Notes: a model not told the origin generated them from the letters alone. Shown: positions 2,965-27,006, counted from the stretch's first letter. The stretch: DNA of 64,000 nucleotides from Candidatus Hydrothermales bacterium (GCA_039630575.1 JBCNUW010000002.1:1-64000); one strand, 5' to 3'. A program made the numbers and translations.

Positions 2965-3459
2965 ATGGATCTCTCAGGATATTTACTTGAAGACCTTTTA
3001 ACTAATGCTATAAAAAGTGAGATAGAAGCTAAAGAACTTTATGAGAATCTTTCAGAAAAAGTAAAAAATTTTCTTCTAAAGGAAAAACTTAAGTTTTTGG
3101 CACAAGAGGAACAACGACACAGAGAAACCTTTGAATCAATATTCAACAAAAGATTCCCTGGAAAGAAAATTACCCTTCCTGAAAAATCAACAGTACCTCT
3201 ACCAAATATAGTAATAACCTCTGAAAAAGTGAAAATAAGTGAAGTTTTTGAAATTGCTATGAAAGCTGAAAAATTAGCCTATGATTTTTATATAGCACTT
3301 GCACCACATTTTAAAGACGAGCCAGAAGTTGAACAGATGATACACTATATTGCCTCCATGGAAATGGGACATTATAAAATATTTGAAATCGAAAGAGAAA
3401 ATGCTTTAAAGTTTGAAGATTACGATGTAGAAAATCCTCTCCTTCATCTTGGACCTTAA
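2965..3459 (+). CDS. Rubrerythrin-like ferritin-superfamily di-iron protein
   Basis: Two E...EExxH/ExxH halves (AIKSE...EEQRH; AMKAE...EMGH); no rubredoxin tail. Confidence 0.85.
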   Translation: MDLSGYLLEDLLTNAIKSEIEAKELYENLSEKVKNFLLKEKLKFLAQEEQRHRETFESIFNKRFPGKKITLPEKSTVPLPNIVITSEKVKISEVFEIAMKAEKLAYDFYIALAPHFKDEPEVEQMIHYIASMEMGHYKIFEIERENALKFEDYDVENPLLHLGP

Positions 3460-3499
3460 AAGGTTCTAATCCTTTTTACTTAAAGAAGGAGAAATTTAA

Positions 3500-3925
3500 A
3501 TGGCTTCAAAAGAACTTTTAGATCTTTTAAACAAAGCAATCGCAGCAGAAATTCAAGTTTCAATTCAATATATGTGGCAACACGTTTTATGGTCAGGTCC
3601 AAAACACTTCGCAGTTAAAGACGAATTCAAAAAGATTGCAATAAGCGAAATGAAACACGCTGAAAAGATAGCTGAAAGACTATACTATCTTGGTGGTATC
3701 CCAACAACAGAGCCGTTACCAATAAATGTTGGAAAAAATTTAAAGGAAATGCTTGAACAGGACAAAAAAGATGAAGAAATGGCTATCGATCTTTATAAGA
3801 AAATAATAAAAAAAGCAGAGGAAGAGAACGATGTTACAACCGCCTTTATTTTTAGAGAAATTCTCGAAGAAGAAGAAGACCATCATGACACCTTTACAAG
3901 TCTACTTGAAAAACTTGATGAATAA
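3500..3925 (+). CDS. Bacterioferritin/DPSL-like ferritin-family protein
   Basis: AIAAEIQVSIQY, EMKHAEKIAERL, EEEEDHH di-iron motifs. Confidence 0.85.
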   Translation: MASKELLDLLNKAIAAEIQVSIQYMWQHVLWSGPKHFAVKDEFKKIAISEMKHAEKIAERLYYLGGIPTTEPLPINVGKNLKEMLEQDKKDEEMAIDLYKKIIKKAEEENDVTTAFIFREILEEEEDHHDTFTSLLEKLDE

Positions 3926-3948
3926 ATAAACTTTATAGAGGTATAACT

Positions 3949-4398
3949 ATGGAGTTAAAATCAATCGATGAAATTTTAAAATTTGCAATAAATAAAGAAG
4001 AAGAAGCATATAGCTTGTATATAAGTTTAAAGGAAAAAACAGATGACAAAGCCCTAAAAAAGATTTTTGAAGAACTTTCACAGGAAGAACTGAAACATAA
4101 GGAAAAACTCTTAGATTTTAAGGAAGGTAAAATTATATTGACACCTAAGAGTGAAAAAGTAACTGATTTGAAAATATCAGATTCTCTTATTGGAAGTGAA
4201 CTAAAGGATGACTTTGATATTCAAGATGTTTTAATTTTTGCTATGAACAGGGAGAAGTTAGCTTTTAAAATTTATAGTGAACTTGCAGAAAAAGTTTCAA
4301 ATCAAGAAGCAAAAGATTTGTTAAATTCTCTTGCAAAGGAAGAAGCAAAACATAAATTGAAATTGGAAACTATATACGATGATTATTTTGGAATGTAA
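3949..4398 (+). CDS. Rubrerythrin-like ferritin-superfamily protein
   Basis: AINKEEEA...EELKH and AMNRE...EEAKH duplicated halves. Confidence 0.85.
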   Translation: MELKSIDEILKFAINKEEEAYSLYISLKEKTDDKALKKIFEELSQEELKHKEKLLDFKEGKIILTPKSEKVTDLKISDSLIGSELKDDFDIQDVLIFAMNREKLAFKIYSELAEKVSNQEAKDLLNSLAKEEAKHKLKLETIYDDYFGM

Positions 4399-5553: not shown

Positions 5554-7854
5554 CTACTCAATAGGAACATCGAGAAATTTTGGATATTCTTTATTCAAAA
5601 TTTTGTAAATTTCCTTTAACGTCTCTCTGAAGGAATAATCAAAGAAATTACCAGGTACTTCTTGATCTTTTCCATACCACCAAAACCAATCTGACCCCTC
5701 TGCTATAAAAATTTTTCTCATAACTTTTTCTCTCTTCTCACTATCAAGATCTTTTAGTAATTTTTCTATATCTTTTCTAACATAAGCAAGATATTCCCAA
5801 GCCTTATTTTCCTCAGGTTCTCCAATCCATGTTGCAAAATTTGCACCAATCCAAGAACCAGGAAAAAGATAATTAAGGGTATTTTTGGGTTTTTTCCATT
5901 CAATGTATTCACTGATAGTCATTGTTTTTATAAATTTAGCCTCATTTAGTGATTGATATAAGTTTTTCAAAAATTCCTTTCCGTCATGTGGATAATGCTC
6001 CCATGCATTTTCTCCATCCAAAATTACAGCTACAACAGGTGGGTTATCTTTTTCTTTCCAATAACGGTATATATTTGAAAGTTCTAAAATGAACCTGTTT
6101 GCCGCCTCAACAGGATCCATATTTTGATATACAAACCCTATTGCATCTGATAAACGCGTGTCCCTAAAAACTACGTAAACACTGTCGTTTCTGTTTTTGA
6201 CCTTATAGACCTTATACTTCTCCTCAAAAGTTAAAAAATTTTTGTTTAAACTTTTCATTAATACCTTTTCATCTGTTGCTATCCATTTTATTCCTGCTGA
6301 AGAAAATAAGGGGATAATTTCATAGGCAACAGATCCTTCAGCTGGCCACATACCATTAGGATTTTTACCAAAAATATCCTTATACATTTTTAGAGCTTCC
6401 TCTATATGCCATTTTGCATCTTCTGGATACGAAAAATCTACATCAGGAAGAGACACACCAGGTAGACCAGGTTTTGCCAATTTTATATCATAAATAAGAG
6501 GTAAGATTGGATGATAAAAAGGAGTTGTTGAAATCTCTATCTGACCTTTTTCCATTAATTTTTTATGTACAGAAATTATCGAATTTATTATTTTTTTATG
6601 AACCTCAACTATCCTTTTTACATCCTCCTCTTTAAAGTTCTTCCCCTTTGTTAGTAAATCTTTTACCGTTACTTTCTCTCCACTCTCAAGCATAACTTCC
6701 TTTTCTCTAAAATCAGGATCAAGCCAAGCTAGATTAAAATAAACTTTTAAATCTATAAGATCTTGGTCACTAAATTTTAATTTATTTAGTTTTTTATCAA
6801 GTAACTCAGAATATCTTGGAAAAGTTCTTATTACTTTATCCCAATTAGCATCAAAAAATCTTTCAATTAAATAATTTCTTTCCTCTTCTTGCATTTCTTT
6901 AATGGGTTTTAATGAAAGACGCATAGCTTTATCTTGTGTACCCTTCATTAAATCAAGAATCATCTCCAAAAGAGAAGGAGTTAAGTTTATGGTTAAATGA
7001 ATTTCTGGATAATCTTCAAGAATTTTTGCCATATCATAATAATCTTTCGTTCCATGTAATCTAACCCAAGGTGATAGATAATCACCAGTTTCATCCTTTG
7101 GATACCTCGGTTGATGCTGATGCCATAAAATCAAAAGAATAAGTGGAAAACCCCTATATTCTATCTCACTTGCTATTAATCTATCCCTTGGAATATGTTC
7201 TATTTCCTCTGATTTTTTTAGGATCTTTTTATCATGAGTTAGTATAAACACAGAATTGAATCCTCCAAATCCGTCATCGACCTTTGCAGGATTGTGTGGG
7301 TCTTCCTTCCATTTATGGTCATCTATAACAAATTTATACTCATACCTACCAGGCGGAAGAGGTATAATTATTTCAAAGAAACCGCCTTCCTTTTTTTCCA
7401 TAACATTTGCATTTTTATCCCAGTTATTAAAAGTTCCTGCAACACAAACTTTTTTTGCTTGTATATCAAAAAACCTAAACCTTACTCCGTGTTCTGTTAT
7501 CTCAAGTGATTCAATAAGCTTTGGTTCAGTAATAATTTTAAAATCCTCTGTTAATATAAAAGCTGAATTGAAACCTCCAAAGCCGTCATCTACTTTCCAT
7601 TTGTTATCCGGATCTTCTCTCCATAAGTTTCCATTTATTACGAACTTGTAAGTGTAAAATCCTGGTTTTAAAGAAAGTTCAATTCTAAAATTTCCCTCAG
7701 AAGTTCTTTCCATTGGATTTAAATAGGGATTCCAATTGTTAAAAGTACCTGCAATATTTACCCTTTCAGCCTCCGGAAAATAAACCTCAAAAATTACTTT
7801 GTTATTTTTACCTAAATAGATAACTGAAAAAAGTAGAAAGATTAACTCTTTCAT
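5554..7854 (-). CDS. GH57 amylopullulanase-type glycoside hydrolase with signal peptide and two N-terminal CBM48 modules
   Basis: Two AGTFNNW...Y.YKFVI...W.EDP.N..KVDDGFGGFNS modules; GH57 motifs HQHQP, TTPFYHPILP, WPAEGSV, FRD, ILDGENAWE, AEGSDWFWW. Confidence 0.92.
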   Translation of the reverse strand: MKELIFLLFSVIYLGKNNKVIFEVYFPEAERVNIAGTFNNWNPYLNPMERTSEGNFRIELSLKPGFYTYKFVINGNLWREDPDNKWKVDDGFGGFNSAFILTEDFKIITEPKLIESLEITEHGVRFRFFDIQAKKVCVAGTFNNWDKNANVMEKKEGGFFEIIIPLPPGRYEYKFVIDDHKWKEDPHNPAKVDDGFGGFNSVFILTHDKKILKKSEEIEHIPRDRLIASEIEYRGFPLILLILWHQHQPRYPKDETGDYLSPWVRLHGTKDYYDMAKILEDYPEIHLTINLTPSLLEMILDLMKGTQDKAMRLSLKPIKEMQEEERNYLIERFFDANWDKVIRTFPRYSELLDKKLNKLKFSDQDLIDLKVYFNLAWLDPDFREKEVMLESGEKVTVKDLLTKGKNFKEEDVKRIVEVHKKIINSIISVHKKLMEKGQIEISTTPFYHPILPLIYDIKLAKPGLPGVSLPDVDFSYPEDAKWHIEEALKMYKDIFGKNPNGMWPAEGSVAYEIIPLFSSAGIKWIATDEKVLMKSLNKNFLTFEEKYKVYKVKNRNDSVYVVFRDTRLSDAIGFVYQNMDPVEAANRFILELSNIYRYWKEKDNPPVVAVILDGENAWEHYPHDGKEFLKNLYQSLNEAKFIKTMTISEYIEWKKPKNTLNYLFPGSWIGANFATWIGEPEENKAWEYLAYVRKDIEKLLKDLDSEKREKVMRKIFIAEGSDWFWWYGKDQEVPGNFFDYSFRETLKEIYKILNKEYPKFLDVPIE

Positions 7855-11710: not shown

Positions 11711-12850
11711 TTATTTAGTCTCTGAAACTTCCTTTTTTTCCTCTTTTTCTTCCACTTCAGGCATATAACTTTCTGGCTCCTCTTCCTCCTTCAAAAGATC
11801 AATATCATCCTTCTTTTTATAAAGAGCTATAAAAATAAAGTTGTTCCCTGAAAAAAACATACTTGCTATATAAGATAAAACCATAAATATAAGAGCATAA
11901 CCAAAAAAGCCTAAAAACCATCCAAGAATATCCCCCCATAGTCCTAATGAACCCGGATCCTCTGGAATGTAAAGTAAAGCACTTGCCCCTATCTTTTCAA
12001 AGTAAGGATATAACTCGGAAAGGAATTTATAGTCAGGTAAAAGAGAATTTGCCTTTTCAATTATAGATGGGAAAAGTGGATAAGCCTTTGAAAGTACAAC
12101 TACAGCAACTAAAACTGCCTTTGAAACAAAAAAAGTAAAAATAGAGCCAGCAACAAACATAACACCTAAAAGAAGAAGTTCATATAAAAATAACCTCCAT
12201 GGCTCTTCGTTAATTGTTGAAAAAATTTCAAAAAGGGTGTCAAAGGTATCATTACCAGTAGTACCTACAATTGAAGGCGAAATAATAAGGGAAACAATCA
12301 AGGAAAAGAAAATGTATACTAAAAACATACAAGTAAAAAAAGCAGGTATTGAAAATAAAATAAATACTAATGTTCCTAAAAGAGGTATCCGTGATATTAA
12401 ACCCCATATAAAACCAATTAGTAAAATTAAAATAATTAAAATTATTAGTAAAATCGGTGTCAGAAAGGAAGATTTACCCTTTGTAATTGAAAATTTCAAA
12501 GCTTCTTTAATTTCATAAAACTCATCACCTTTTAACTGTTCATAGTGAATTTTTGAAACAGCAGTACCAAATATAAAAAAGATCAGTAAAAAAATAATTA
12601 ATCCTATAAAATGAAAAACTTTTCCTTCAAATGATAAAGGTTCAAAGAATATAATAGGTAAGAACTTATATGTCCCCCACACAGTTTTAAAATCCCAACC
12701 ACTTAAAAGTAATGCAATGTATGAGAAAAATGAATAAAAAAATGAACCAAGAACTAACCCCATAAAGAAAACCCACATTTTTTTAACTGATAGTCCAAAT
12801 CTTGCAGCTCTAAATACATCCTTGAAATTGTAGTGGAGTTTTACTGGCAT
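11711..12850 (-). CDS. Polytopic membrane protein of unknown function, acidic C-terminal tail
   Basis: 379-aa ORF, 7 or more hydrophobic segments; no family recognised. Confidence 0.75.
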   Translation of the reverse strand: MPVKLHYNFKDVFRAARFGLSVKKMWVFFMGLVLGSFFYSFFSYIALLLSGWDFKTVWGTYKFLPIIFFEPLSFEGKVFHFIGLIIFLLIFFIFGTAVSKIHYEQLKGDEFYEIKEALKFSITKGKSSFLTPILLIILIILILLIGFIWGLISRIPLLGTLVFILFSIPAFFTCMFLVYIFFSLIVSLIISPSIVGTTGNDTFDTLFEIFSTINEEPWRLFLYELLLLGVMFVAGSIFTFFVSKAVLVAVVVLSKAYPLFPSIIEKANSLLPDYKFLSELYPYFEKIGASALLYIPEDPGSLGLWGDILGWFLGFFGYALIFMVLSYIASMFFSGNNFIFIALYKKKDDIDLLKEEEEPESYMPEVEEKEEKKEVSETK

Positions 12851-12924: not shown

Positions 12925-14664
12925 TTAAAAGCGAAATTCAACACCCAATGTTAAAAGAAAAAGCTTTGATAAAAGTTTCTCTGATATTAAACTTATTCTA
13001 TTATACCTCAAATAGGAGTTTTTCATTAACTCAAGATTCGAACCCTTTTCGATAAGAAATATTCTTCTTGCCCATTCGTCCTCATCAAGTGTATAAGGAT
13101 CAAGTCCATAGGAAATAAAAAAGAAATTCTTTTCCTTTATTATTCTTCTTAATTCTAAATAAGGTGCAAGAAAGGAATTTTTAATTTTTAAATGAGATGC
13201 ATTAAAAACCATCAGTCTTAAATCTAAATATAATTCATAACTCTTTAAAAATTTATTAATTGATTTAAAAATAAACTCTGTAGCGATGGGAGAATAAAAA
13301 AATCCAGAAGATGAAAATCTTCCTATAATAGATATGGGCATAAAAGATGGTTTAACTTCAAAAATTATTGATAAAAGTTCTTTAAAACCCATAGAAAAGG
13401 TCTCAAAATACATAAGTTGATTTATCCTATGAAAATAAAAAAGATCACTAAAGGGAAATTCTTTTTTTAAATTAAAATAGTAGTGCTTTAACCTAAAAAT
13501 AATATTTTCACTTTTTAAAAATAAGCTTGAAATCAAAAGACCACCTCTATAGGTTCCCGGAAATTTTATAAAATCATTTAAATCATACTCCAAGGAAAAT
13601 CCACTTTTAAGTCGGGATGAATACATAAAAGAACCATAAAACCTCAAAAAATCTATTAATTTTATGGTATGTTTAAAGGGTTCCCCATTAGATTTTTCAT
13701 CTGCCCTCCAAAAGAGCTCTCCTTTTCCAGATGCGAAAATTAATTCAAAATTTCTTATTTTTTTCTTTAAATCTAAACTGAAAAAATTTTCTTCCTTATA
13801 GGAATTAAAAAAAATAAGTTTATTATCAATAGTAAGAGAATCTGGAGAAAGACTACCATAAGTTCTATCAAATCCCTTACTTTTAAAATAATTTAGTGCT
13901 AAATCTTTTAAAACACTGAACCTTGAAAAAATTAAATCTCTACCCTCCTTCCATCCATTAGAATAGAGAAAATCGAAATAAAAAATTTTTGACTTGTAAT
14001 TTAAAATAAAACCCTCTTCCTCTCTACCAAAATCCTTATGAAACTCTCCAATGTTTCCTGTTAGATCAAAAGGCTCAATTGAAGATAAAACAAATTTGTT
14101 GTAAAAACCTCTTATAAATAAATTACCTTCCCTTAGACTAAACTCAGCTCTTTCAAAAAAAACTGGTATGGCTCCGTCACCTTCAAGGTTTTTGCTCTGA
14201 TACCTCAACCTAATCCATAACATTGAATTATATGGAAAAAACCCTTTTATATCTAACTTCGAATCACCTATAGTGAGAATTTTTCTTAAAGTGTCTTCAA
14301 AGTTTAAATAAAACCTTATATCACCAGAAAAATTAACACTTTTGTTCCAATCAGTGTTTGATAATGTAAGTGGAATAATTTTTTCACCCTTTTCTGTAAT
14401 TTCAATTAAAGAATTTCCAAAGGTTCCAACTTTTAACGGATTCTCCGGATCATTTACCCAACTCCCATCTACTATGAACTTATACTCATACCTTCCAGGT
14501 TCAAGGTCTACCTCTATTTCCCAAAAGTCCCCCCTTTTTTCCATTTTTAAAGCCCCTTTTTCCCAATCTGTAAAATCTCCAGCTAGAAAAACTGACCTTG
14601 CATCGGGTGCTTTTATCTTAAATTTAATTGGATAAAGAATTAAAATTAAAATCAAAAATTTCAT
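12925..14664 (-). CDS. CBM48 (glycogen-binding) domain fused to a predicted outer-membrane beta-barrel
   Basis: Signal-like start, FLAGDFTDW...PGRYEYKFIVDGSWVNDPEN, then long alternating aromatic strands ending LTLGVEFRF (BAM beta-signal type). Confidence 0.75.
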   Translation of the reverse strand: MKFLILILILYPIKFKIKAPDARSVFLAGDFTDWEKGALKMEKRGDFWEIEVDLEPGRYEYKFIVDGSWVNDPENPLKVGTFGNSLIEITEKGEKIIPLTLSNTDWNKSVNFSGDIRFYLNFEDTLRKILTIGDSKLDIKGFFPYNSMLWIRLRYQSKNLEGDGAIPVFFERAEFSLREGNLFIRGFYNKFVLSSIEPFDLTGNIGEFHKDFGREEEGFILNYKSKIFYFDFLYSNGWKEGRDLIFSRFSVLKDLALNYFKSKGFDRTYGSLSPDSLTIDNKLIFFNSYKEENFFSLDLKKKIRNFELIFASGKGELFWRADEKSNGEPFKHTIKLIDFLRFYGSFMYSSRLKSGFSLEYDLNDFIKFPGTYRGGLLISSLFLKSENIIFRLKHYYFNLKKEFPFSDLFYFHRINQLMYFETFSMGFKELLSIIFEVKPSFMPISIIGRFSSSGFFYSPIATEFIFKSINKFLKSYELYLDLRLMVFNASHLKIKNSFLAPYLELRRIIKEKNFFFISYGLDPYTLDEDEWARRIFLIEKGSNLELMKNSYLRYNRISLISEKLLSKLFLLTLGVEFRF

Positions 14665-14668
14665 AAAT

Positions 14669-17600
14669 CTAATTCGTTAATCTTATGATCTTAAAGACTT
14701 GAACTTCACCTTTTTCCTTTTCAATCCTAATAAAGTAAATACCAGATTCTGTCTTCGGAATTTGAATTTTTTTGTCAAAAAATTTCTTTTCAAAAATCTT
14801 TCTTCCAGTAATGTCGTATATCTTTAAATTTAAATCTTTATCATAAAAGTTAAAGAAATATTTAGGGTTTATAGTATTAATAAAAAATTTACTTTCCTTT
14901 TTTTCATATTTTTCTTCTATCATCAAAATCTTCATTAGAATAAATTCTACAGGCTCAATTCTTAGGTTTAGTATTCTCCAACGGGGAACCTGCCACTCAA
15001 GAGAACCCTCGTTGAAGGTCTTGTAAGTACCTACTGCAAGATAAATTGAATCTGGATCACTTCCTAACAAGTTCCTTAAATAAATGACCCCCTCCATTAT
15101 TCCTGTATCGGAAGAAAAGGCCTTAAATTTAAAGTTAAAGGTATCATTTACAATATTTTCGAGAGAATCAAAGAATGAAATGAAGCTGTTATCATTCTCA
15201 TCAGCAAGAAAAAAATTATAAAAACCAACACTATCCTTTTTAGCCCATGGAGATTTCACAATCTTTTTATAGGGATTAAAGCTTATAAAAATAAAGTGAT
15301 CATTATTAAACCTATCATTGGAGTTTCCAGCAGCCTCTGTTGCTATATACAATCTTCCAGAATCTCTATCATAAAATCCCCAAAGATGCATTTGAGGATT
15401 CTCGGCAATAAGAGGAACACCGGGATCTAACTTACCATCCATTACAAAGTTTAATTTACCTACTATAAAGCTATCATTTCTGTTTAGCCATGAAATGTTA
15501 TAAGAAGAATCTTTTGCATAAATTGTATAAATAATTTTAGTTCCATTAGGATGAGGCGATATTATACCCTTATAAGTATAAGATGAATCCTTTTTCATTA
15601 AAGTCTTAAAAATATTAATCCAGTTGTTATTTGTCCAGTATAAAATAACTGAATCAACTCCCGAGGGATCAATAGCTTTAATTTTTACTGTTACAGAGTC
15701 AGAGGAAGTAATATTATAAACTGGATTTCTTTGAAGATCAAAAAGAAGAGGACCTTCACGATCACCAGGTCCAATAAAAGGTAGGTCAGGAACACCTCTA
15801 CCAGCATAAAGATATATGTTAAAGTTTCCAGATATATTTCCTATTTCAACTTTTTCTCCAGCAAAGACCCTTGATATTAAATTAAATTTTAAACCTATGC
15901 CAGACTCCCAAAGGATAAAAACACCTCTTCCTGATTTTCTGTTTCTAAAGCCTCCATACATCCAACCGTTAGGTGAGATATCATTTTCAAAATCAAGATT
16001 ATAATAATTAAAAATAAGATAGTAAAGATCAGGTGAGAAAACAGCCTTAGACCATATTATATATGGCGAGCTATAAGTTAATTTTATAAAATTTTTACCT
16101 CTTTTAAAAGAATATGTTTTTAAAATACCTTGACTTTCAAAAGAAATAAAAGCATTTCCGGTGTCAGAATAAAAACTATAAAGATTATACAGATTGTTCT
16201 CAAAAAAAGCATCTTCACCAAATCCTGAATGATTGTAATCAGAATGATCACCCTCCCCTTGCCAATAAGTAAAAAAGTTTCCAATATAAACAGAACCTGA
16301 AGAATCACAGAGAAATACCATTTTTCCTCCTATTCTTTCGAAAACTGCAAGAAATACATCTGTTCCTATCACGTATTCCATGAATCCATCCCCATCTATA
16401 TCGGCTGAATCCTTAAAAACACTTCTTGTAGAATAAAGCCAGTTTGAAGCGTAAGCAAAAATATTTGCTTTTCCTGTATGATTCCATAAATTTCTCCCCC
16501 AAAAAACAAGTTCACCTCCAGGACCTGAATGCCAAGCTGTTTCGTATAAAAGGGAATTTAAAGTTAAAAATCCAAGAATTTTTAAATTACTACTTTGTAA
16601 ATTTTTAAGACTATTCCATGAAAAGAGCCATAAATCCTCATAGTCTCCTTTTATTCCATTTAGATTTATGTCAGGAGCGTCATGATCAGTTCCATAGGCT
16701 TTAACACTCTTAAAGTGATTGTACCAGTTGTCATAGTTTCCACCCGTCCATCCATGAAGTTCATGGTATGCTGAATAGTTAATATAAATAGTTGGTGGGT
16801 CGTTGTATGGATTTTGGTCATATATTCTGTCAACACCCCACCATTTTGCAGCTTCAGCAACATGGATGGGTTGCATCCACCCTTCGTTTCTTGCTGAGGA
16901 AAGCCAAGCAATGTTAGCATCATAAGAGTTTGAAGGTGCTCCAGCATATCCAAAATCCCAACCTGCAACACCTGCAGCTTTTTCCCAATCATCACCATAA
17001 ACACAAATTTGTTCTTGATCCCATGAATTTGCAAGATCCTGAAAGTGAGTATACAAAAATGTATTTGGAACATAATTCCATACCCAAAAATCTCTTGCAT
17101 GTTTTTGAATAAAAATAATAAATACTCGATGACCATCCTCTATCATTTGATGCACCTTATGACTGTTATAACAGGGTGTGCCATCAGGGAAAGTGTGACT
17201 GTACCATTCGTGAACGTTATCATCTAAAAGTATACATGGTGACACATGTCTACCCCATGAATCTTTTTTACCGTAAATTGAATCTAAGAGTGCCACAAGA
17301 GAGTATGGCATTAAATTTTTGCTTTTAAAAACTCTCTCAGGAATCCATATAACCGTAGGATGGTCTGGCCATCCCTCACCTTTTATAAGTGAATCGTCTT
17401 GTATTCTTTTGATTATAAAACCAAACTTATTTATCTCTCTTGCAGCATAAGGTAAGATATTTTGTCCATAAACACTTCCAACAATATCAACAAGATCACT
17501 TTCTAAACGACTTAAAAGTCCCCTATCATTTAAAAAAAAGGCATAAGAGCTTGTTAAAGTTCCAGAAATATGGATATCAACAGGGATGTTATAATAGAAA

Positions 17601-17755
17601 TGGGAGTCAAGGACTCTATGGTATGAATTTCCGTTATAATTTTGATCCCCTGGTCTTAAAGCGTAAAAGCCGTTATCTCCAAAATGTTGATTGCCGTGAT
17701 GGACAAAGGCAACCTTTGCTGTTCCACTAAATAAAAAAATTAATATTAAAACCAT
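14669..17755 (-). CDS. Divergent multidomain GH57-like glycoside hydrolase with T9SS-type C-terminal domain
   Basis: HHGNQH, WIPERV (nucleophile position), YGDDWEK (acid/base position), DIDGDGFMEY..GG resembling the 4-alpha-glucanotransferase C-domain, tail KIYDITGRKI...SGIYFIRI...KIIR. Confidence 0.7.
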   Translation of the reverse strand: MVLILIFLFSGTAKVAFVHHGNQHFGDNGFYALRPGDQNYNGNSYHRVLDSHFYYNIPVDIHISGTLTSSYAFFLNDRGLLSRLESDLVDIVGSVYGQNILPYAAREINKFGFIIKRIQDDSLIKGEGWPDHPTVIWIPERVFKSKNLMPYSLVALLDSIYGKKDSWGRHVSPCILLDDNVHEWYSHTFPDGTPCYNSHKVHQMIEDGHRVFIIFIQKHARDFWVWNYVPNTFLYTHFQDLANSWDQEQICVYGDDWEKAAGVAGWDFGYAGAPSNSYDANIAWLSSARNEGWMQPIHVAEAAKWWGVDRIYDQNPYNDPPTIYINYSAYHELHGWTGGNYDNWYNHFKSVKAYGTDHDAPDINLNGIKGDYEDLWLFSWNSLKNLQSSNLKILGFLTLNSLLYETAWHSGPGGELVFWGRNLWNHTGKANIFAYASNWLYSTRSVFKDSADIDGDGFMEYVIGTDVFLAVFERIGGKMVFLCDSSGSVYIGNFFTYWQGEGDHSDYNHSGFGEDAFFENNLYNLYSFYSDTGNAFISFESQGILKTYSFKRGKNFIKLTYSSPYIIWSKAVFSPDLYYLIFNYYNLDFENDISPNGWMYGGFRNRKSGRGVFILWESGIGLKFNLISRVFAGEKVEIGNISGNFNIYLYAGRGVPDLPFIGPGDREGPLLFDLQRNPVYNITSSDSVTVKIKAIDPSGVDSVILYWTNNNWINIFKTLMKKDSSYTYKGIISPHPNGTKIIYTIYAKDSSYNISWLNRNDSFIVGKLNFVMDGKLDPGVPLIAENPQMHLWGFYDRDSGRLYIATEAAGNSNDRFNNDHFIFISFNPYKKIVKSPWAKKDSVGFYNFFLADENDNSFISFFDSLENIVNDTFNFKFKAFSSDTGIMEGVIYLRNLLGSDPDSIYLAVGTYKTFNEGSLEWQVPRWRILNLRIEPVEFILMKILMIEEKYEKKESKFFINTINPKYFFNFYDKDLNLKIYDITGRKIFEKKFFDKKIQIPKTESGIYFIRIEKEKGEVQVFKIIRLTN

Positions 17756-19074
17756 ATCTTAACCCTTAATCTTATTATATCATAAATTTTTTGAAATTGA
17801 GAATCAGAAAAATCAATATCATTGACAAGGTCAAAATCTGTTACATAACCTTCACCATATTCAAGGTAAAGTTCTTTTCCTGAACTTATGTAGCCTATTT
17901 GCAAAAAAGCACTTTCCCATGTAGCAAAATCACTCCTCCCCTGCGCAGCTCTAAAATAAAAATAGAAATTCCTTTTTAAGTTTATTTTACCCTCTACACC
18001 AAAGAGAACTCTTTCACCTATTGAATAGGGACTATTATGAACTCCTATGTCCTTAATTTTAAGCTGTACTTTTAAAAGATAGTTAATTTCTTCCTTTTTT
18101 AACTCAAAAAATAAATTTCTCCAAGTCTCTCTTATTTCATCTACAATTTCGTAAAATGTTTTAAAGGAATAGCCATTTATAAATTCTATATAAATTTCAC
18201 TTTGCGAAAATAAAAAATTGAAAGGTTTTTCGTAATATTTACCGTAAAGATTTTTTGTTCTATAAAAATCAAACTTTTCAGTTAAAGTTATGGATTTGTA
18301 TGGGAAAAAGAAGTTTATTTCACCTTTAAATCCTTTTTTTCCCCATTCTTTACCTATATATGAGAATCGGTTTGAAAAGGGTGTTCTGAAGCTGTCATCA
18401 ATAAAGTATTTGGAAAGAACAAACCTAAAGGGTCCTAAATACATATTTGATACTTCTGTAGCAAAAGCGCTACCTTTTAAAATATTTGAATACTCAAAGG
18501 TTAAAAATCCTTGAAAAATGCCAAATCTTAAAAAGATATCGTACAGTTCATAGATTTTATTTTCATAAAAATTTTTCTTATTTGCGTAAATAATTTGGTT
18601 TTCACCAAATTTTTTAAATTTTAAAGAAAAAATATTTATATCTGAATTTTCAGTTCTTTTTGATTTTGAAAAAAGGTGGTTTACTTCAAAACTTTTTAAA
18701 AATTTTAAATTTAACCTTGCTCCCTCAGATTTTGCCCCAAAATCATCGTCCCTGATCCTCTCGGGCGAAATTACAAATAAAAGTGGACTTTCAAAAAAGT
18801 GCCTATCCTCACGAGCAAAAAAAACAAGATATAAGGGCTTATAAAATTCAACATGACCCTGTAAGTATAAAAGCTTACTTCTCTGAAAGGTATTCTCCAT
18901 CATATAGGAAAGATAAGTATTTATAATTTCACTGCCATAAAAATACTTAAGTTCAAAATGAGCTCTATAAAAATTTAGTTCCCAATTTACAGGTTTTGAC
19001 AGCCTTTCAAATTTACTTTCGTTCTCAAAATAAAAGTTAAGAGAATAAAATGAAAAAATAATAAAACTAATCAT
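17746..19074 (-). CDS. Predicted outer-membrane beta-barrel protein
   Basis: Short hydrophobic leader, aromatic-rich amphipathic strands, ends IRLRVKIWF. Confidence 0.65.
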   Translation of the reverse strand: MISFIIFSFYSLNFYFENESKFERLSKPVNWELNFYRAHFELKYFYGSEIINTYLSYMMENTFQRSKLLYLQGHVEFYKPLYLVFFAREDRHFFESPLLFVISPERIRDDDFGAKSEGARLNLKFLKSFEVNHLFSKSKRTENSDINIFSLKFKKFGENQIIYANKKNFYENKIYELYDIFLRFGIFQGFLTFEYSNILKGSAFATEVSNMYLGPFRFVLSKYFIDDSFRTPFSNRFSYIGKEWGKKGFKGEINFFFPYKSITLTEKFDFYRTKNLYGKYYEKPFNFLFSQSEIYIEFINGYSFKTFYEIVDEIRETWRNLFFELKKEEINYLLKVQLKIKDIGVHNSPYSIGERVLFGVEGKINLKRNFYFYFRAAQGRSDFATWESAFLQIGYISSGKELYLEYGEGYVTDFDLVNDIDFSDSQFQKIYDIIRLRVKIWF

Positions 19075-19778
19075 CTCTTCAATTCGAAAGTTGCACCTGT
19101 CGATAAACCAAGATAAGAGTTATTCTCAAGGGATATCATAAAGGCTCTATCTTCAAAGGAAAGTCCAATTCCAGTGTTTGTAAAATTTTCTGAAAAAGAT
19201 AAAAATATAGAAATTGGCTTTAAAAAAAGGTAAAATCCAGTTTTATAAATTTCACTTTCTTTTGAAATAAAAATATTAAATTTCTCAATTGGTGAGTAAT
19301 TTAAACAAATGTGATAATCTTTTGATTCAAAAGAGTTTAAAATATGTCTAATATTAAAAGATAATACTAAACTGCCTTTGACAAAAGAACTTCCAACATC
19401 AAAATCAAAAGATGCTTTGTTTTTAAAAGATGAGTTAAGTAAAAGATAGTTTAATGAAGTTGATAAAGCAAAACTTCTAATTTTCTTTGCAAAACCTAAT
19501 AAAAATTCTGTTTCTGAATAATTTTTAAGTTTCTTTTGAAAGATGGTAAGAAAGGCAAATTTTTTAAAAGATAAGGAAAAATGCACTTCATTCCATTCTT
19601 TTATACTGTAAGGATTTCTGTAATCAAAATAAAAAAGGAAATTTCTATCAAAAAAAGATATAAGGGAAGGATAAAAAGAAGTTGACGAGAAAAAGTTAAG
19701 ATCAGCTGAACCAGTGAGTCTCAAAAATGAAGAGGGTTTAAAATCAAATAGAGCATAGAAAAATAATAGAATTATCAT
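19071..19778 (-). CDS. Small outer-membrane beta-barrel, PorP/PorV-like
   Basis: FYPSLIS..YRNPYSIKE recalls the NPA-type N-terminus; FDFDVG strand; ends GATFELKR; follows a CTD-bearing gene. Confidence 0.5.
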   Translation of the reverse strand: MIILLFFYALFDFKPSSFLRLTGSADLNFFSSTSFYPSLISFFDRNFLFYFDYRNPYSIKEWNEVHFSLSFKKFAFLTIFQKKLKNYSETEFLLGFAKKIRSFALSTSLNYLLLNSSFKNKASFDFDVGSSFVKGSLVLSFNIRHILNSFESKDYHICLNYSPIEKFNIFISKESEIYKTGFYLFLKPISIFLSFSENFTNTGIGLSFEDRAFMISLENNSYLGLSTGATFELKR

Positions 19779-20749
19779 TTTAAAACTTTTATAACTTTTT
19801 TTTCTTTTAATTTTCCTTTTATATCAAGAAGAAGAATGTATAATCCCTGTTTTTCTATTTTAAAAATAAATTCTTTAAGTTCATCTGCCACAATAAAACC
19901 GTTATAAATTTTTTTATAAACTTTTCCATCTTCTCTTATAAGAACTAGATCAATATACGAGGTTTGTGATAATTTTATTTGGGCTTTTACACTGTTTCCC
20001 TCAAAGATGATTTCTCTGTCAAGGATAAACTCCTTTAAGTTTATCCTTTCAAACCACTTTTCCTCTATTTCTGTCTGTTCGAAAGGTTTAATTCCTGAAT
20101 CTGGTTTTGAGTCAAAATTTTTATCAATATGGATTTTTAGAATTCTTCTTACATGTTCAGGAGGGATCCCGTCAACATCTTCATTGTCTGGTAAAATATC
20201 ACCAGCACCAGAGTGATCACCTCCAGCTATAAAAGAGATTATAACAATACTTGCGTTCTGTTTAAAATTTTCACCAAAAAAAATATTAAATGGAATTTTT
20301 GCTTCCAAAATACTATTTTCACCTGATTTTCCCTTATTGAAAATTTCAATATTTGAAGTCAAATCACTTGTTGATCCGTTAATACTAATTTTTCTAAAAC
20401 CCCCTTTTAAAAGGTCTCCGTCCCATAGAGCTATCATAAAGTTGGCACTAAACCCAACAAGTTTTATATTTCTTGGATAAAAGTTAAGATTATCAAGATC
20501 CTGTAAACCTTCTTCTCCAACATTAAAGATGATTAAAAGTGCATTGTTTTTTACAATATACTCGATACCTAAATATAAGTTACTTTTATCCCATGTTATA
20601 TAGAGGTCTTTAACTTCATTTTGTAACCCCCAATAACTGTCGCCAAAATTATCAGAGTAAACTTTTTCATAATCAAGAAAATCACTTAAATCTCCATCTA
20701 TATTTATGGTGTGATAAGTAAGGTTGAAAAATAAAAATATAAATAACAT
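19775..20749 (-). CDS. Exported DOMON/CBM9-like protein with Ig-like T9SS-type C-terminal domain
   Basis: YHTINIDGDLSDF, LYITWDKSNLYLGI, LEAKIPF; tail DGKVYKKI...GLYILLL...KKVIKVLK. Confidence 0.6.
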   Translation of the reverse strand: MLFIFLFFNLTYHTINIDGDLSDFLDYEKVYSDNFGDSYWGLQNEVKDLYITWDKSNLYLGIEYIVKNNALLIIFNVGEEGLQDLDNLNFYPRNIKLVGFSANFMIALWDGDLLKGGFRKISINGSTSDLTSNIEIFNKGKSGENSILEAKIPFNIFFGENFKQNASIVIISFIAGGDHSGAGDILPDNEDVDGIPPEHVRRILKIHIDKNFDSKPDSGIKPFEQTEIEEKWFERINLKEFILDREIIFEGNSVKAQIKLSQTSYIDLVLIREDGKVYKKIYNGFIVADELKEFIFKIEKQGLYILLLDIKGKLKEKKVIKVLK

Positions 20750-21958
20750 TCAGTTTCCTTCTAATAACTTTTTAATTCGATCCTGCAAATTTTTTTGGAC
20801 TTCTTCAATTTCTTTTTCACCCTTTATAAATGGGGAGATTTCTTGTATATAGATTCTTTCCACTTCAGGATATTCCGCGACAGGTGCTCTTGGTTTGGTA
20901 CTTTCTATAGCTTTTATTAAAGTTTCCATAATTTTATTTTCTTTGAGGTCTATCATAGAGACTACTTTTTTGTTAACAGGAATTTGACCGAGAGTTTTAG
21001 CCCATTTAAGTTGAATTTCTTCGGAAATAAGGTATTTAAGAAATTTCATAGCATTTTCTTTGTTTTTTGAATTTTTAAACAATACCATCTGAGTGCCACC
21101 AAGTGCTGTGAATGATCCAGCTTTTCCCTTAGGAATCAAAGCAATTCCAAAGGGAAAGTTTATATCCTTAAGACTTTTTATTTTCCAAGGACCAGAAAAA
21201 ATCATAGCATATTTTTCATTTATAAAACCCATGTCTGGATTAACAGCACCTTCAAGAAAGGCACCGCCTTCAACTTTATGTTTTAAATAAATATCTCTTT
21301 TGAAAATCAGTGCTTCTTTAAAAGCTTCATCAAGAAAAAGTGGGTTACCTTGTTTATCAAAGACTTCAGAACCAAAGGTATAAAAAAATGGAAGGTCCCA
21401 CCATAAAGTATTTCTCATTCCAAACCCGTATATTCCTCTTTTTAAATCTGTCAACTTTTTTGAATATTCGAGGAATTCTTCCCAAGTGGAAGGGGGTTTT
21501 AAGCTATCAAGTCCTTTTTCTGCAAACAATTTTTTGTTATAAAAAAGTAGTATGCATGTTACCTGATCTGGTATCCCATAGAGCTTTCCATTATAATAAG
21601 AGGATTTCAAAGGAGCTTCGTATAAATCTTTTAAAATATCAACAAAGTAATTTGTATCAAGTTCTGCAAGTATACCTTTTTTAGCAAGAAGATAAACTTG
21701 AGCTATATCAAGTCTTGAAATATCTGGGTTTTGTCCAGCTATTACAGAGGTTAGTATTTTCTCGAGCATTCCTTCAAAGGGTACTCTTTGAACATTAATC
21801 TTTATATTGTGAGATTTTGTAAATTCTTTTACTATTTCATTAAAAACTCGGAATTCTTCGTCATTATAGGAAACCCATACTGTAAGTCCCCTTTTAAAAT
21901 CTTCTTTACAGAAAGCAAAAAAGGTTATAAAGAGAATAAATAGAAAAAATTTTTTCAT
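20750..21958 (-). CDS. Sugar (maltodextrin-type) ABC transporter substrate-binding lipoprotein
   Basis: MKKFFLFILFITFFAFC, YNGKLYGIP, LFYNKKLF, PPSTWEE, AMIFSGPW. ATG at 21958 preferred over the track's 21976. Confidence 0.88.
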   Translation of the reverse strand: MKKFFLFILFITFFAFCKEDFKRGLTVWVSYNDEEFRVFNEIVKEFTKSHNIKINVQRVPFEGMLEKILTSVIAGQNPDISRLDIAQVYLLAKKGILAELDTNYFVDILKDLYEAPLKSSYYNGKLYGIPDQVTCILLFYNKKLFAEKGLDSLKPPSTWEEFLEYSKKLTDLKRGIYGFGMRNTLWWDLPFFYTFGSEVFDKQGNPLFLDEAFKEALIFKRDIYLKHKVEGGAFLEGAVNPDMGFINEKYAMIFSGPWKIKSLKDINFPFGIALIPKGKAGSFTALGGTQMVLFKNSKNKENAMKFLKYLISEEIQLKWAKTLGQIPVNKKVVSMIDLKENKIMETLIKAIESTKPRAPVAEYPEVERIYIQEISPFIKGEKEIEEVQKNLQDRIKKLLEGN

Positions 21959-21997
21959 ATCTTTATTATAAAGCAATATTTTTTTTATAATAAAAAC
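21959..21997. promoter_or_regulatory. Back-to-back divergent -10 boxes in a 39-bp gap
   Basis: TATAAT on minus at 21965-21970 and on plus at 21986-21991, each 6 nt from its ATG; no SD on either side. Confidence 0.6.
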
Positions 21998-23308
21998 ATG
22001 GTTGAGAAAATTTTAAAAAAAATCAAAAATAAGGAAATAAAAATTGGTGTTATAGGGCTTGGTTATGTTGGTCTTCCATTAAGTGAGCTTTTTCTTAAAA
22101 AGGGTTTTAAAGTTCTTGGATACGATGTCTCTGAAGAAAAAATTGTTAATTTTCAAAAAGGACAATTTGAAATAGAGGATGTAAATACAGTTTTTCTTAG
22201 TGAAAAAATTAAGTCAAAAGAATTTATCGTAAGTAGTAAAGAGGAAATAATAAATGAAATGGAAGCAATTTTTATATGTGTGCCCACACCTGTTACAAAA
22301 GAAAGGGTTCCTGATCTTTCTTATGTAATTACGGCTGCTAATTCTATCAAACGAAACATGAAAGAGGGTCAAATTATTGTATTGAAATCAACTACTTTTC
22401 CTGAGACAACTGAGAAAATTTTACTTCCAATTTTTGAGGATAAAGATTTCAAAGTAGGAAAGAACTTTTATCTTGGTTTTGTACCAGAGAGAGTAAATCC
22501 TGGTGATAAGGTATTTACAATTGATAAGATTCCTGTAGTTACAAGTGGTGTTACAAAAAATTGTTTAAAGTTAATAAATGCCATATACAATGAGATTGTT
22601 CCATCTATTTTTCCAGTTTCCTCTCCGAAAATAGCAGAGATGAGTAAAATTTATGAAAATATATTTAGAAATGTAAACATAGCGCTTTCTAATCAGATGG
22701 CAGTTTTATGTGATAGGATGGGAATTGATATATGGGAAGTAATTGAGGCAGCGAAAACAAAACCCTTTGGTTTCATGCCTTTTTATCCTGGACCAGGTGT
22801 TGGAGGACATTGTATACCTGTTGATCCCTATTATCTTTCCTTTAAGGCAAAGGAATATGATATGGAACTTGATTTTATAACTCTTGCTGCCAAAGTAAAC
22901 GATGAAATGCCTTACTATGTTGTAGAAAGAATTATAAGGATTTTAAATAAAGAGAGAATTTTGCCTCCTGAGTCAAAAATACTTATTTTAGGTGTCGCCT
23001 TTAAAAAAGACATAAAGGATATAAGACATTCTCCTGCAATAAAGATTATCTCTATTTTGGTCAATTTAGTAAAGAAAGTTGAATATATTGATCCACATGT
23101 ACCTGAAATTAAGGAATTAAATAAAAAGAGCTTGAAATATAAAAGTGATATTTTTAAATTATTTGATCTTGTTGTTATATTGACAGATCATTCTGATTTT
23201 CCTTATGAAGAAATATACGAAAATTCAAAACTTATATTTGATACAAGAGGAGTTTATAAGGTAAAAAGTAAAAAAATTTATAAACTCGGAGAGGGAAAAA
23301 AAATTTAG
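21998..23308 (+). CDS. Nucleotide-sugar dehydrogenase (UDP-GlcNAc/ManNAc 6-dehydrogenase, WbpA/WecC family)
   Basis: GLGYVGLP, ICVPTP, KSTTFP, PERVNPG, GPGVGGHCIPVDP, AFKKDIKDIRHSP. Confidence 0.92.
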   Translation: MVEKILKKIKNKEIKIGVIGLGYVGLPLSELFLKKGFKVLGYDVSEEKIVNFQKGQFEIEDVNTVFLSEKIKSKEFIVSSKEEIINEMEAIFICVPTPVTKERVPDLSYVITAANSIKRNMKEGQIIVLKSTTFPETTEKILLPIFEDKDFKVGKNFYLGFVPERVNPGDKVFTIDKIPVVTSGVTKNCLKLINAIYNEIVPSIFPVSSPKIAEMSKIYENIFRNVNIALSNQMAVLCDRMGIDIWEVIEAAKTKPFGFMPFYPGPGVGGHCIPVDPYYLSFKAKEYDMELDFITLAAKVNDEMPYYVVERIIRILNKERILPPESKILILGVAFKKDIKDIRHSPAIKIISILVNLVKKVEYIDPHVPEIKELNKKSLKYKSDIFKLFDLVVILTDHSDFPYEEIYENSKLIFDTRGVYKVKSKKIYKLGEGKKI

Positions 23309-23342: not shown

Positions 23343-25328
23343 ATGAAACTCTTAGCCTTTTTTGTTATACTTCATTATATAAACGTAGATGGAAATCCAA
23401 GCGATTGGATAGGAACACCTCCGAGTTTGGTTCATGATTTTACATTTTCTGGAGGTGAATTTATATATAAAGGTGATTTTAACGATTTTAGAACAGATTT
23501 AGGCAATACTTTGTATCTTGACATCACCGAATTCAGGTTAACATGTGATAATACTTGGATTTACTTTTTGATAAAGTTTAACGATATTGGTCCTTTTGAT
23601 AGGGATTTAATTCATATTGAAATTTCATTAGGAAATCCTAATGATCCAACAAGATATGAGTGGATAGGTGATGATGCACAACTTGGTCTTACCCGTAGGG
23701 CTTTAGCCGATAGGATCATAGCCCTTCATTCCACAACCCCTTCAAATTTTAACATAGAAATGTGGGATGGAGGGGTTTGGTATGCACCTCCTACTCCTGG
23801 GTATCTTGCAGTTGTGAGTGATATTTATAACTGTGTTGAAGCAAGAATATCTCTTAATGATGTTGCTGATGGATCTTTAATTTTGCCCTCAGTAATAAGA
23901 ATTTCACTTGTAAGTTTTAAAAACAACGTAGGTTGGAATAACGATATTGATGCAACAGCTGACATAGGGGGTATTCCGATTAATGATGGAATTGATGTTA
24001 TGGGAGGTAAAAAGGGAGTATCAGAGAATGCTTGGTTTAGGGATTTAAGTGATAATTTGGTAAACAGCTTCTTTGATATTCTATTAAAGAGAAATGGTGA
24101 TGCCCGTAATTTTAAAAGAATTGTAGATGGTTCTCCTACAGACTGGATAGGTTCTCTTCCTTCACAAATTCATGAAGTTATATATTCAAAGAGAGAGTGG
24201 ATCTATAGAGGCGATATAGGTGATATGAGAGAGGATCCACATGTTCCTGATGATTCGGTTTTTGATTTGAAAGAATTAAGATTAACTGTTGATAGTGTAA
24301 ATCTATATATACTTGCCAAGTTTCATAAAATGGATTTTCAGGAGACCCAGATAGCTCTTTCTGTTGATAAAGACCAAAATCAGGGAGATGACCTTTTGAA
24401 AATTAACGGTGATGATACAGGAACTAACCTTTCTCAAAGTATCCAATATTCTGAAAGAGAAGTTATTTTAACAGCTGATTCGGTGAATCATGCTGAGATT
24501 TTCCTATTTGCTGATGATGGTTCATTGTGGTATACCCCAGTTTCACCATATAGAATTGTAATTGATCCTATTAATAAAACTATTGAAGGAAGAATTTTAC
24601 TTTCTGATTTAAGCTTAAAGCCTAATGATACAATAATTTTATCAGGTGCAAGCTATGATGCAAATGTTCAGGGTATTGGCAACAGTCCTAATGGTTCTGA
24701 TAATCCTGCAACTCCGCAGATTGAGGAGGGAGATATGAGTGTTGACTACATGGTTTGTGATGCCTTAGATGTGATTGGTGGGAATGTGGGAGTTTCTCAA
24801 AATTCTTGGATTAGAGATTTACAAGATGGGGATTTAGATTTTTATTATACTGTTTATTTACAAAATATCTTGCAGCCACTTGGTTTTTTTGAGGAGTTTG
24901 TTGTTTTTGAAAATAAGGAATATGGAATACTGATAAGGTATAGTATTGATACAGAGGATGAAATTGAAATTCTTAAAAAGCAAGAAAATGGTGAGTATTA
25001 TAGGATTTTTAGTTCAAAACAGAAAGATGGAGTGTATTTAGATAAGGACGTTATTCCCTCAAAAGTGTACTTTTATTTATTAAAATCAGGGGATAAAATT
25101 TTTGGTCCTTATAAAGTTATTTATCAAAGAGTTTATGAGAAAGCTTTAAAGATTTATAATTTTGATTTTATATATTTACCTGAGATGAAAAATTTAATTA
25201 TATTTGATGTAGGAGGTAGAGGAAGGTTGATGGTTGGAGAGAAGAAAGTGAGGCTTTATGATTTTAGAAATGGCGTTTATTTTATAAGGGATAGGGATAA
25301 AACATATAAGGTTTTGAAAGTGAGATGA
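23343..25328 (+). CDS. Exported protein with two tandem DOMON-like repeats and T9SS-type C-terminal domain
   Basis: [10 protein letters not shown]...DITEFRLT...DVMGG and [10 protein letters not shown]...DLKELRLT...DVIGG; tail IFDVGGR...NGVYFIR...KVLKVR; SD AGGAGG. Confidence 0.7.
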
Positions 25329-26215: not shown

Positions 26216-27006
26216 AAAGGTATTTACTCCTTTTATTTTTCTCACTTTTATATATTTTTCCCTTTTACTTTATGCTTCTTGTAGCTTTTAGACCAGAAGT
26301 TTTAGCGCTTAGTATGAATCTTTTGCCTTCAAATCTTACTTTTGAGAATTTTGTTAGAATTTTTAAGTACCATAACTTTGGAAGATACTTTATAAACAGC
26401 TTGATAGTTGCTTTTTCAGGAGCTTCTATTTCAACCTTTTTAGCATTTATCTGTGCTTATTCCTTTGCAAAAGAGAATTTTCTGTTTAAGGGTTTTTTAT
26501 ATAACCTATTTGTTTCTACACTTCTTGTTCCAGGTATTCTTTTTATGATTCCTCAATTTCTGATAGTTGTATATTTAAGATGGCTTGATACCTTTTTGGG
26601 ACTTGTTGTTCCTCATCTTGCTAACGTTTTTGGTTTCATTTTTTTGACGGAGTATATAAAGAAAATTCCCGATGATTTAATTTATGCAGCAATAATTGAT
26701 GGGGCTTCTAAAATTAGAATTATATTTAATATTATTTTTCCTCTTTCGATGCCTATGCTTCTTACAATTTTTCTTCTAAATTTTCAGTTTCATTGGAACA
26801 ACTTTTTATGGCAACTTCTTGTAACAACCAAAAATAGTATGTTTACAATTCCTGTAGGTCTTAATAGTTTAACCTCAATGTATCAGGAATACTTTGGAGC
26901 AAAGATGGCAGGAGCTTCTCTTTCTATAGTACCTGTTGTTTTACTCTTTTTAATCTTTCAAAGATACTTTATTCAGGGTATAATAAGGGGGGGGCTTAAA
27001 TTTTAA
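26212..27006 (+). CDS. Carbohydrate ABC transporter permease (MalG/UgpE type)
   Basis: [38 protein letters not shown]. Confidence 0.92.

Follow-up and report, generated by a model that had tools for sequence, protein, structure and literature searches.

The CBM48-barrel gene and its surroundings

The window considered here is the whole analysed stretch of 64,000 nucleotides from Candidatus Hydrothermales bacterium (GCA_039630575.1, JBCNUW010000002.1:1-64000). Translation of its minus strand between positions 12925 and 14664 gives a 579-residue ORF whose product is composed, from the N-terminus, of a very short signal-like peptide read from the sequence (residues 1-11, 14632-14664), a CBM48 domain of the AMPK-beta glycogen-binding type (residues 12-89, 14398-14631), a linker of about 20 residues (90-109, 14338-14397) and a plug-less, 22-stranded outer-membrane beta-barrel with a C-terminal F (110-579, 12925-14337), all on the minus strand. 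The initial annotation, in which a CBM48 had been seen fused to a predicted outer-membrane barrel, is thereby confirmed. The named homologues of the protein come from Candidatus Hydrothermales and WOR-3. Another genome of the same genus holds a copy that is 80% identical over residues 100-579, in an identical gene order, which rules out an assembly chimera; a chance fusion or misassembly is likewise rejected, because the order is kept elsewhere and a CBM48 is present in every homologue that has an N-terminal region. As export signal the protein has a short N-terminal hydrophobic stretch resembling those of the host outer-membrane proteins BamA and SprA. Many exported proteins of this host, among them BamA, SprA, three TBDTs and the products of the cassette genes, begin with an unusually short hydrophobic peptide (about 8-12 residues) in which an AxA site is not obvious, and homologues of the target in other lineages have longer signal peptides that look ordinary by eye.

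The gene closes a run on the minus strand in the order solute-binding protein (SBP), cargo, PorV-like barrel, partner barrel, GH57-like enzyme and CBM48-barrel. The SBP (20750-21976) is assigned by Pfam as a MalE-like sugar ABC solute-binding protein (SBP_bac_8), and its orthologue co-occurs with the barrels in other genomes. The cargo (19775-20749) is a secreted protein of 324 residues with a putative glucan-binding N-terminal domain and a T9SS-type Ig C-terminal domain, the latter recognised from the tails of its homologues, which are of the CHU_C/FlgD_ig kind, with Glucodextran_C in some lineages; an Atlas look-alike (Glucodextran_C, 0.92) is a lead only. The adjoining 235-residue PorV/PorP-like barrel (19071-19778) has no direct family match and is identified through a profile, built on 51 positional homologues found in other genera, that matches it with an E of 4e-7 and the true PorV of the window with 2e-20, the positional homologues having PorV_fam matches below the cut-off. 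Over the cargo and PorV-like pair as a whole (19071-20749), homologues match CHU_C, FlgD_ig, PorV_fam and PorP_SprF, mostly below cut-off. A 442-residue partner barrel (17746-19074), discussed below, is followed by a GH57-like enzyme of 1028 residues (14669-17755) that carries a T9SS C-terminal domain (Por_Secre_tail, E 6e-7; TIGR04183 above cut-off). The profile of its family matches the GH57 4-alpha-glucanotransferase 1K1W (E 1e-8), and the 1028-residue sequence by itself has no PDB relative.

Further genes of the window are related to this run. On the plus strand two sugar ABC permease genes (25325-26215 and 26212-27006, together 25325-27006), the first with a BPD_transp_1 match, both have orthologues directly in the cassette at another locus, L042. 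Upstream of them is a 661-residue secreted-looking protein (23343-25328, plus strand), of uncertain cassette membership, with no family above cut-off and an E of 0.07 against the 324-residue family; it has two similar repeats and a T9SS-like tail. An amylopullulanase-like enzyme with two CBM48 domains and a GH57 domain by Pfam (5554-7854) lies 5 kb downstream of the CBM48-barrel gene on the same minus strand, and its homologues occur inside the cassette in other phyla; an NCBIfam 'T9SS plug' match to its CBM (27 bits, cut-off 100) is read as a shared Ig-like fold. Far off in the window, a MalK-like ABC ATPase (54876-55874, minus strand) matches the MalK gene of the marine cassette L084 with an E of 2e-86 and is the probable motor of the importer. 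Directly downstream of the CBM48-barrel gene, positions 11711-12850 encode a 379-residue multi-pass membrane protein of no known family, retained in the sister genome (L031) and not seen in other loci. A UDP-sugar dehydrogenase gene (21998-23308), divergent from the cassette, separates the SBP gene from the permease operon, and three adjacent small ferritin/rubrerythrin-like genes were noted by eye at 2965-4398. Promoter and terminator scans of the locus stayed at chance level (51 against 54.8 and 6 against 5.8, respectively), and the locus contains no listed RNA holder.

The host genome (94.7% complete) has BamA (Omp85), SprA, TonB and five TBDTs, and gives no match to LamB (PF02264) or SusD (PF07980). 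At C12:124400-136426 it carries a TBDT-cargo-PorV module made up of exbB-exbD-exbD-tonB, a TBDT, a 702-residue protein, PorV and a 1,147-residue protein. Other WOR-3 have the CBM48 lipoprotein and a companion lipoprotein encoded directly behind the CBM48-barrel gene; in this host the pair is located on another contig (C45), about 6 kb from a glycogen cluster with glgC- and glgA-like, GH57, GalT-like, glgB-like and GH77 genes, cluster and lipoprotein pair together occupying L193:248-9481 and 15294-17044.

Structure of the CBM48-barrel protein

The N-terminal domain is recognised by the Pfam models AMPK1_CBM (residues 12-85, E 1.4e-14, 54 bits for a cut-off of 26.8) and CBM_48 (residues 14-69, E 4e-8, above cut-off); NCBIfam gives sub-cut-off CBM matches to the protein and nothing else. 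Its fold is an Ig-like sandwich that superposes on AMPK beta with an rmsd of 1.4-1.5 over 78-80 residues. An intact CBM48 had been placed at about residues 12-95: Pfam, the fold and the sugar-binding residues agree that it is intact, and the model moves its end to near residue 89. The available text of a study of AMPK reports that W100, K126, W133, L146 and T148 contact beta-cyclodextrin and are required for glycogen binding (PMC2642990). In the PDB alignment, the positions W100, K126, W133, L146 and N150 of AMPK beta correspond to W34, K62, W69, F82 and N84, and T148, which falls in a two-residue gap, has no equivalent. Across the family these positions are conserved at weighted frequencies of 100% (W34), 91% (K62), 84% (W69), 81% (F/Y82) and 85% (N84), and from this retention of sugar-binding positions the domain looks functional.

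The AlphaFold2 model of the whole protein, built from a 113-row alignment, has a pLDDT of 94.8 and a pTM of 0.88. It shows the CBM sandwich up to about residue 89, a linker over residues 90-109 in which the pLDDT stays at 74-96, and 22 strands between residues 110 and 578, connected alternately by turns of 2-6 residues and by long loops of up to 50 residues. Three of the long loops are conserved, namely L3 (189-216) and the helical L8 (399-428) and L11 (520-569). Strand count and topology had been named beforehand as the check on the barrel, and the 22 strands, the alternation of short turns and long loops and the whole-barrel alignment to TBDT barrels bear it out; a C-terminal part folding as a soluble domain is rejected by the same model. 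The initial annotation had some 470 residues of strands following the CBM, of which the barrel stands, with its start now set at residue 110. It was also right that the protein ends in an F-terminal beta-signal, the last residue being F here as in 219 of the 220 aligned near-full-length family members, and that a catalytic domain is absent, since Pfam finds none and leaves the remaining 490 residues without any family. The claim that there is no TonB plug is borne out as well: no Plug match is returned by Pfam, and in the model only the CBM48 and the 20-residue linker precede strand 1. The CBM begins right behind the signal-like peptide, which leaves no free segment there for a TonB box. Taken as a single sequence, the strand part shows alternation in 0.19 of windows against 0.13 +/- 0.03, a value reached by 11 of 500 shuffles and thus modestly above chance.

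Structural comparison places the barrel among known outer-membrane folds in a general way. The best whole-barrel match is the 22-stranded TBDT BT1763 (5t3r; Z 15.8, rmsd 5.0 over 356 residues), and BtuB is matched with a Z of 14.0 and an rmsd of 4.4 over 342 residues; these TBDT matches barely exceed those to porins, with 5-10% identity, and no listed structure stands out. Foldseek similarly returned generic barrels (TM 0.2-0.36), and AlgE and Wzi are among the generic fold matches. At the sequence level, the barrel profile gave no match to PDB sequences at an E of 1, none of 24 barrel-part sequences matched a meaningful Pfam family at an E of 0.1, PF00593-type barrels included, and a home-made TBDT profile run on 293 family sequences reached a best E of 0.11. 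The barrel thus appears to belong to no known Pfam or NCBIfam family and to have no sequence relative in the PDB. The ESM Atlas holds as nearest structural cluster one of 78 members with the same architecture (TM 0.75), most commonly from Fidelibacterota.

Conservation within the family is concentrated in the CBM, L3, L11 and polar positions of the barrel. The latter comprise E463, D481, R483 (97%) and E504 near strands 18-22, and R172 and R248 at strands 4 and 8; some aromatic positions (F187, F/Y487, F498 and Y502) are conserved as well. L3 and L11 may narrow or gate the lumen. Outer-membrane barrels usually place their N- and C-termini on the periplasmic side, and the alternation of 2-6-residue turns with long loops, read with this usual topology, assigns both termini of the protein to the periplasm; the CBM would, from topology, be periplasmic too. 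Coevolution analysis of 220 sequences (effective number 148) did not locate the CBM, the signal being too noisy: of the 45 top strand-strand pairs, just 15 joined neighbours.

A paralogous partner barrel

The 442-residue partner (17746-19074, minus strand) carries neither plug nor CBM, and its AlphaFold model (pLDDT 87.5) is a plug-less barrel of 24 strands. It resembles the CBM48-barrel in a short strand 5, a long L3 and a long last loop. With shallow alignments the two families were linked weakly by HHalign (5%, E 0.007); with deep alignments the match reached 96.3% and an E of 1.6e-9, its 195 columns running in register from strand 1 onward, and the profile of the CBM48-barrel matches partner proteins in ten loci with E values of 5e-7 to 1e-12. 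By profile comparison, the partner is a paralogue of the CBM48-barrel. Its top fold matches are ushers (Z 18, rmsd 5.9-6.3), and the fimbrial ushers PapC and FimD similarly have 24 strands; the likeness is one of strand number only, since the 432-residue partner model, 8% identical to them, has neither plug nor the periplasmic N- and C-domains of an usher, and an usher identity is rejected. A complex prediction for the two barrels scored 0.00 and gave no usable model, which weighs neither way.

Conservation of the cassette

In a search with the barrel-only profile, 169 clusters at 50% identity were obtained, the best 150 of them listed. A CBM48 is present in 113 of the 153 barrel proteins examined. 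Where a region before the barrel exists it is there without exception (111 of 111 homologues: one copy in 104, two in 6 and three in 1), and the 40 CBM-less proteins are at most 591 residues long and have no region before the barrel. On the sequences compared, the fusion of CBM48 and barrel is obligate.

The genomic surroundings were collected by scanning genome contigs with an alignment of the CBM48 lipoprotein, which gave at least 72 loci from the best 80 stretches. Because the loci were picked with this alignment, linkage to the lipoprotein is by construction; the other linkages are not. The core order is T9SS-type cargo, PorV-like barrel, 24-stranded partner, CBM48-barrel and CBM48 lipoprotein. 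The barrel gene is present in 60 of the 72 listed loci, in 58 of them with its CBM and in two cut by contig ends; the partner lies directly upstream in 50 of the 54 listed loci with at least 1.5 kb of DNA, and a PorV-like gene is found upstream in 39 of the 49 with at least 3 kb. At least 10 of 12 WOR-3 regions have the partner. The CBM48-barrel thus belongs to the core of a conserved module of several genes, among them the paralogous 24-stranded barrel, a context that the initial annotation had not recognised. The loci come from WOR-3, Cloacimonadota, Eisenbacteria, Zixibacteria, Neomarinimicrobiota, Latescibacterota, Krumholzibacteriota, Fibrobacteraceae and Elusimicrobia. In marine lineages, where 13 of 30 loci were examined, the order runs from a phosphorylase or GH77 through an SBP-permease fusion, a permease, MalK, cargo, PorV-like barrel and partner to the CBM48-barrel, and continues with the CBM48 lipoprotein, a further lipoprotein, a 2xCBM48-GH13 enzyme and a GH57; the full operon is found at L042 too.

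Several variants were noted. The marine solute-binding protein and permease are fused into one protein of 733 residues at L084:1485-3683, and a compact cassette at L181:7899-10866 (genome G052) consists of a 413-residue partner, a CBM48-barrel ORF of about 490 residues and the lipoprotein, which makes it well suited as a minimal candidate for structural study. In the CBM48 lipoprotein (L040:8871-9263 and homologues) the lipobox Cys is invariant and the CBM is interrupted by a choice-of-anchor X motif. No TBDT-like ORF was found in the cassette loci with a 7-sequence profile, for which the only control was its own training set.

Home-made profiles detected an alpha-glucan enzyme in 23 and an SBP or permease in 32 of the 60 listed barrel loci; when an enzyme or an ABC gene of whatever kind is counted, 40 loci are positive. 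The remaining 20 have neither within the sequence available, some of them (for instance L137, L138, L140, L146 and L153) with 10 kb of flank; the barrel core is therefore more constant than the catabolic genes. In two loci with no glucan enzymes nearby, the cassette is followed immediately by an adhesin-like ORF of about 3,200 residues (L140:10579-20262 and L146:10590-20240) whose intimin/Big-domain matches are weak and far below cut-off.

Among 251 WOR-3 genomes, the CBM48-barrel is found in 29, the partner in 30 and both in 28, the three single-barrel cases being one contig end and two genomes that are 75-80% complete; the cassette is thus present in about 12% of the WOR-3 genomes searched. 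The secreted GH57-like enzyme occurs in 28 of the 251, all among the 29 that have the CBM48-barrel, and its genes are mostly unlinked, on other contigs or far from the barrel. The SBP orthologue, defined by an E below 1e-100 (84 genomes match at 1e-20), occurs in 36 genomes: 30 of the 31 with a barrel have it, and so do 6 of the 220 without. Since the positives fall in 8 families only, these counts are not independent evidence. In two of the six barrel-negative genomes with the SBP (G065 and G060; L175:13071-19900 and L178:13559-19666), a TBDT and a cargo-like ORF of 1,110 residues divergently adjoin a GH77-phosphorylase-GH13/57-ABC locus, joined in G065 by a PorV-like gene, which suggests that the TBDT replaces the barrel pair there; of the other four, two have no outer-membrane gene at the locus and two have contigs that are too short.

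A proposed role in alpha-glucan uptake

Gene context and co-occurrence lend strong backing to a predicted role of the module in alpha-glucan uptake; starch or glycogen fragments probably enter the cell through it, by a means not described before. As to the protein itself, the reading we favour, and hold to be fairly probable, is that of a channel by which alpha-glucan enters independently of TonB, its chains being trapped on arrival by a periplasmic CBM48 for use by the ABC importer. At the cell surface, starch or glycogen would be captured and clipped by a PorV-held binding protein together with GH57/GH13 enzymes secreted through the T9SS; maltodextrins would then cross one or both barrels without TonB, through a wide lumen narrowed by the conserved L3 and L11. 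The periplasmically tethered CBM48 would bind the emerging chain, acting as a sink or ratchet with no need of TonB, and would pass it on to enzymes of the periplasm and to the MalE-like protein, the last steps being ABC import and then the action of GH77 or phosphorylase. Against an entry channel stand the 20 of 60 loci with no catabolic neighbour and the position of the host lipoprotein near glycogen synthesis genes; another uptake route may also exist, because the host has TonB and five TBDTs. The sole cultured WOR-3 strain, cassette-bearing or not, is described in the available part of its report as showing no growth on the tested substrates, starch and maltose included (PMC12285271). A broader proposal, made more tentatively, is that of a third outer-membrane glycan route, in which the paralogous plug-less 22- and 24-stranded barrels cooperate in passing long or branched alpha-glucan without TonB, with the CBM48 as a ratchet or gate, periplasmic or lumenal, and with T9SS-displayed binding proteins feeding the pair.

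The position of the CBM48 is the point at which the first alternative departs. The domain could sit in the barrel lumen as a sugar-gated plug that replaces the TonB plug and shifts aside on glucan binding, which would leave the uptake role unchanged. A 22-stranded lumen is normally plugged, the CBM resembles a plug in its small size and its N-terminal place, and the linker and overall model are predicted with the confidence given above; moreover, linker residues 102-109 (range from residue 91 in the model) are aligned with the OmpT N-terminus, which lies inside the pore, and with the last plug residues of some TBDTs. None of the barrel fold matches, however, aligned CBM core residues to a plug, the lumen could be filled from the outside by the three long loops that are conserved, and the two or three CBMs of 7 of the 111 homologues are too many to fit together, so that this arrangement is unlikely.

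The constancy of the display genes raises a different possibility. With the PorV-like and cargo genes as the most constant neighbours (the 39 of 49 listed loci above), and with some importer-less loci beside the adhesin-like ORF (L140 and L146), the barrels might form a surface display or adhesion platform in which the linker threads the pore and the CBM48 grips starch or glycogen outside, near PorV-anchored binding proteins, while sugars enter elsewhere; a 20-residue linker could plausibly span the membrane. Autotransporter-like features are nevertheless absent, two very large barrels seem excessive as anchors, an importer or enzyme adjoins in two thirds of the listed loci (40 of 60), and a TBDT stands at the glucan locus in two barrel-less genomes; we regard such a platform as quite improbable.

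Export in place of import is considered very unlikely. In PgaA and BcsC export the polymer is guided by TPR domains, and a CBM48 could similarly guide a self-made, glycogen-like surface polymer out through the channel, in line with the host CBM48 lipoprotein gene lying near the glgC/glgA/glgB-like genes and with AlgE and Wzi among the fold matches; yet those neighbours that were identified comprise hydrolases, GH77, phosphorylase and an ABC importer with a solute-binding protein, and of the genome-wide correlates found, the tightest is a secreted protein resembling a hydrolase. The scan for a synthase covered part of the ORFs, and none was seen among these. Least probable of all, a T9SS accessory that exports or attaches amylolytic cargo rather than conducting sugar would explain why a PorV-like gene and cargo with a CTD are constantly linked, and why SprA is present, but neither barrel matches a T9SS family in NCBIfam, the sugar site of the CBM is fully conserved and the cassette is confined to the small share of WOR-3 genomes given above.

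Taken together, these data describe a real, undescribed outer-membrane module, whose function we infer from context. No description of the CBM48-barrel fusion or of the cassette was found in a literature search whose coverage of subscription papers was small. Outer-membrane glycan uptake has so far been understood through maltoporin-type porins and SusC/D, and many uncultured phyla have starch or glycogen enzymes with neither porin nor SusC/D. For the import of the products in such phyla the module offers candidates in the form of two new large-barrel families with no solved relative, and the idea can be tested with purified proteins because one barrel is fused to a well-understood binding domain. 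It also provides a marker by which alpha-glucan foraging can be traced in lineages from marine, sediment and hot-spring settings, and, as a scaffold for nanopores, a pore of 22 or 24 strands that lacks a plug is of interest.

Relationship to known systems

Parts of the module have counterparts elsewhere. The glycogen-binding domain of AMPK beta has the same fold and the corresponding W100, K126, W133, L146 and N150 positions, although the CBM48 is here joined to an outer-membrane barrel and to neither a kinase nor a glycoside hydrolase. T9SS type B cargo and its PorP/SprF-like anchor, in the available text of their description (PMC9143113), likewise have a CTD-bearing protein encoded directly before a PorV/PorP-like barrel; the pair in the cassette differs in that its matches lie below curated cut-offs and lean to PorV_fam, in that it occurs outside Bacteroidota, and in that it is tied to two large barrels.

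For the outer membrane, the available text of a 2026 review of bacterial glycoside transporters names only TBDTs and maltoporin (PMC13543919), and in the same source maltoporin LamB with MalEFGK2 provides passive outer-membrane entry feeding a MalE-type ABC importer, as is proposed here. The long conserved L3 loop of the CBM48-barrel is a further likeness to LamB. The system described here has a fused CBM and two different barrels, and a LamB identity is rejected by the strand number of 22 and by the lack of a PF02264 match in the protein and in the host genome. LamB is an 18-stranded barrel and a trimer.

The SusC-type TBDTs, with BT1763 as the best whole-barrel match, share with the CBM48-barrel a 22-stranded barrel preceded by an N-terminal domain; the CBM48-barrel has a CBM48 in that place, a barrel of about 480 residues, no plug (PF07715) and no TBDT family match, and a TBDT identity is rejected on the missing plug. 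The Sus loci of Bacteroidota co-encode surface binding proteins, CBM lipoproteins and amylases, as the cassette does, whereas the cassette has no SusD, includes the 24-stranded paralogue as partner and has an ABC importer encoded in the locus. If the proposed reading is true, at least nine lineages, most of them uncultured and marine Marinimicrobia among them, would have in the module their counterpart to Sus.
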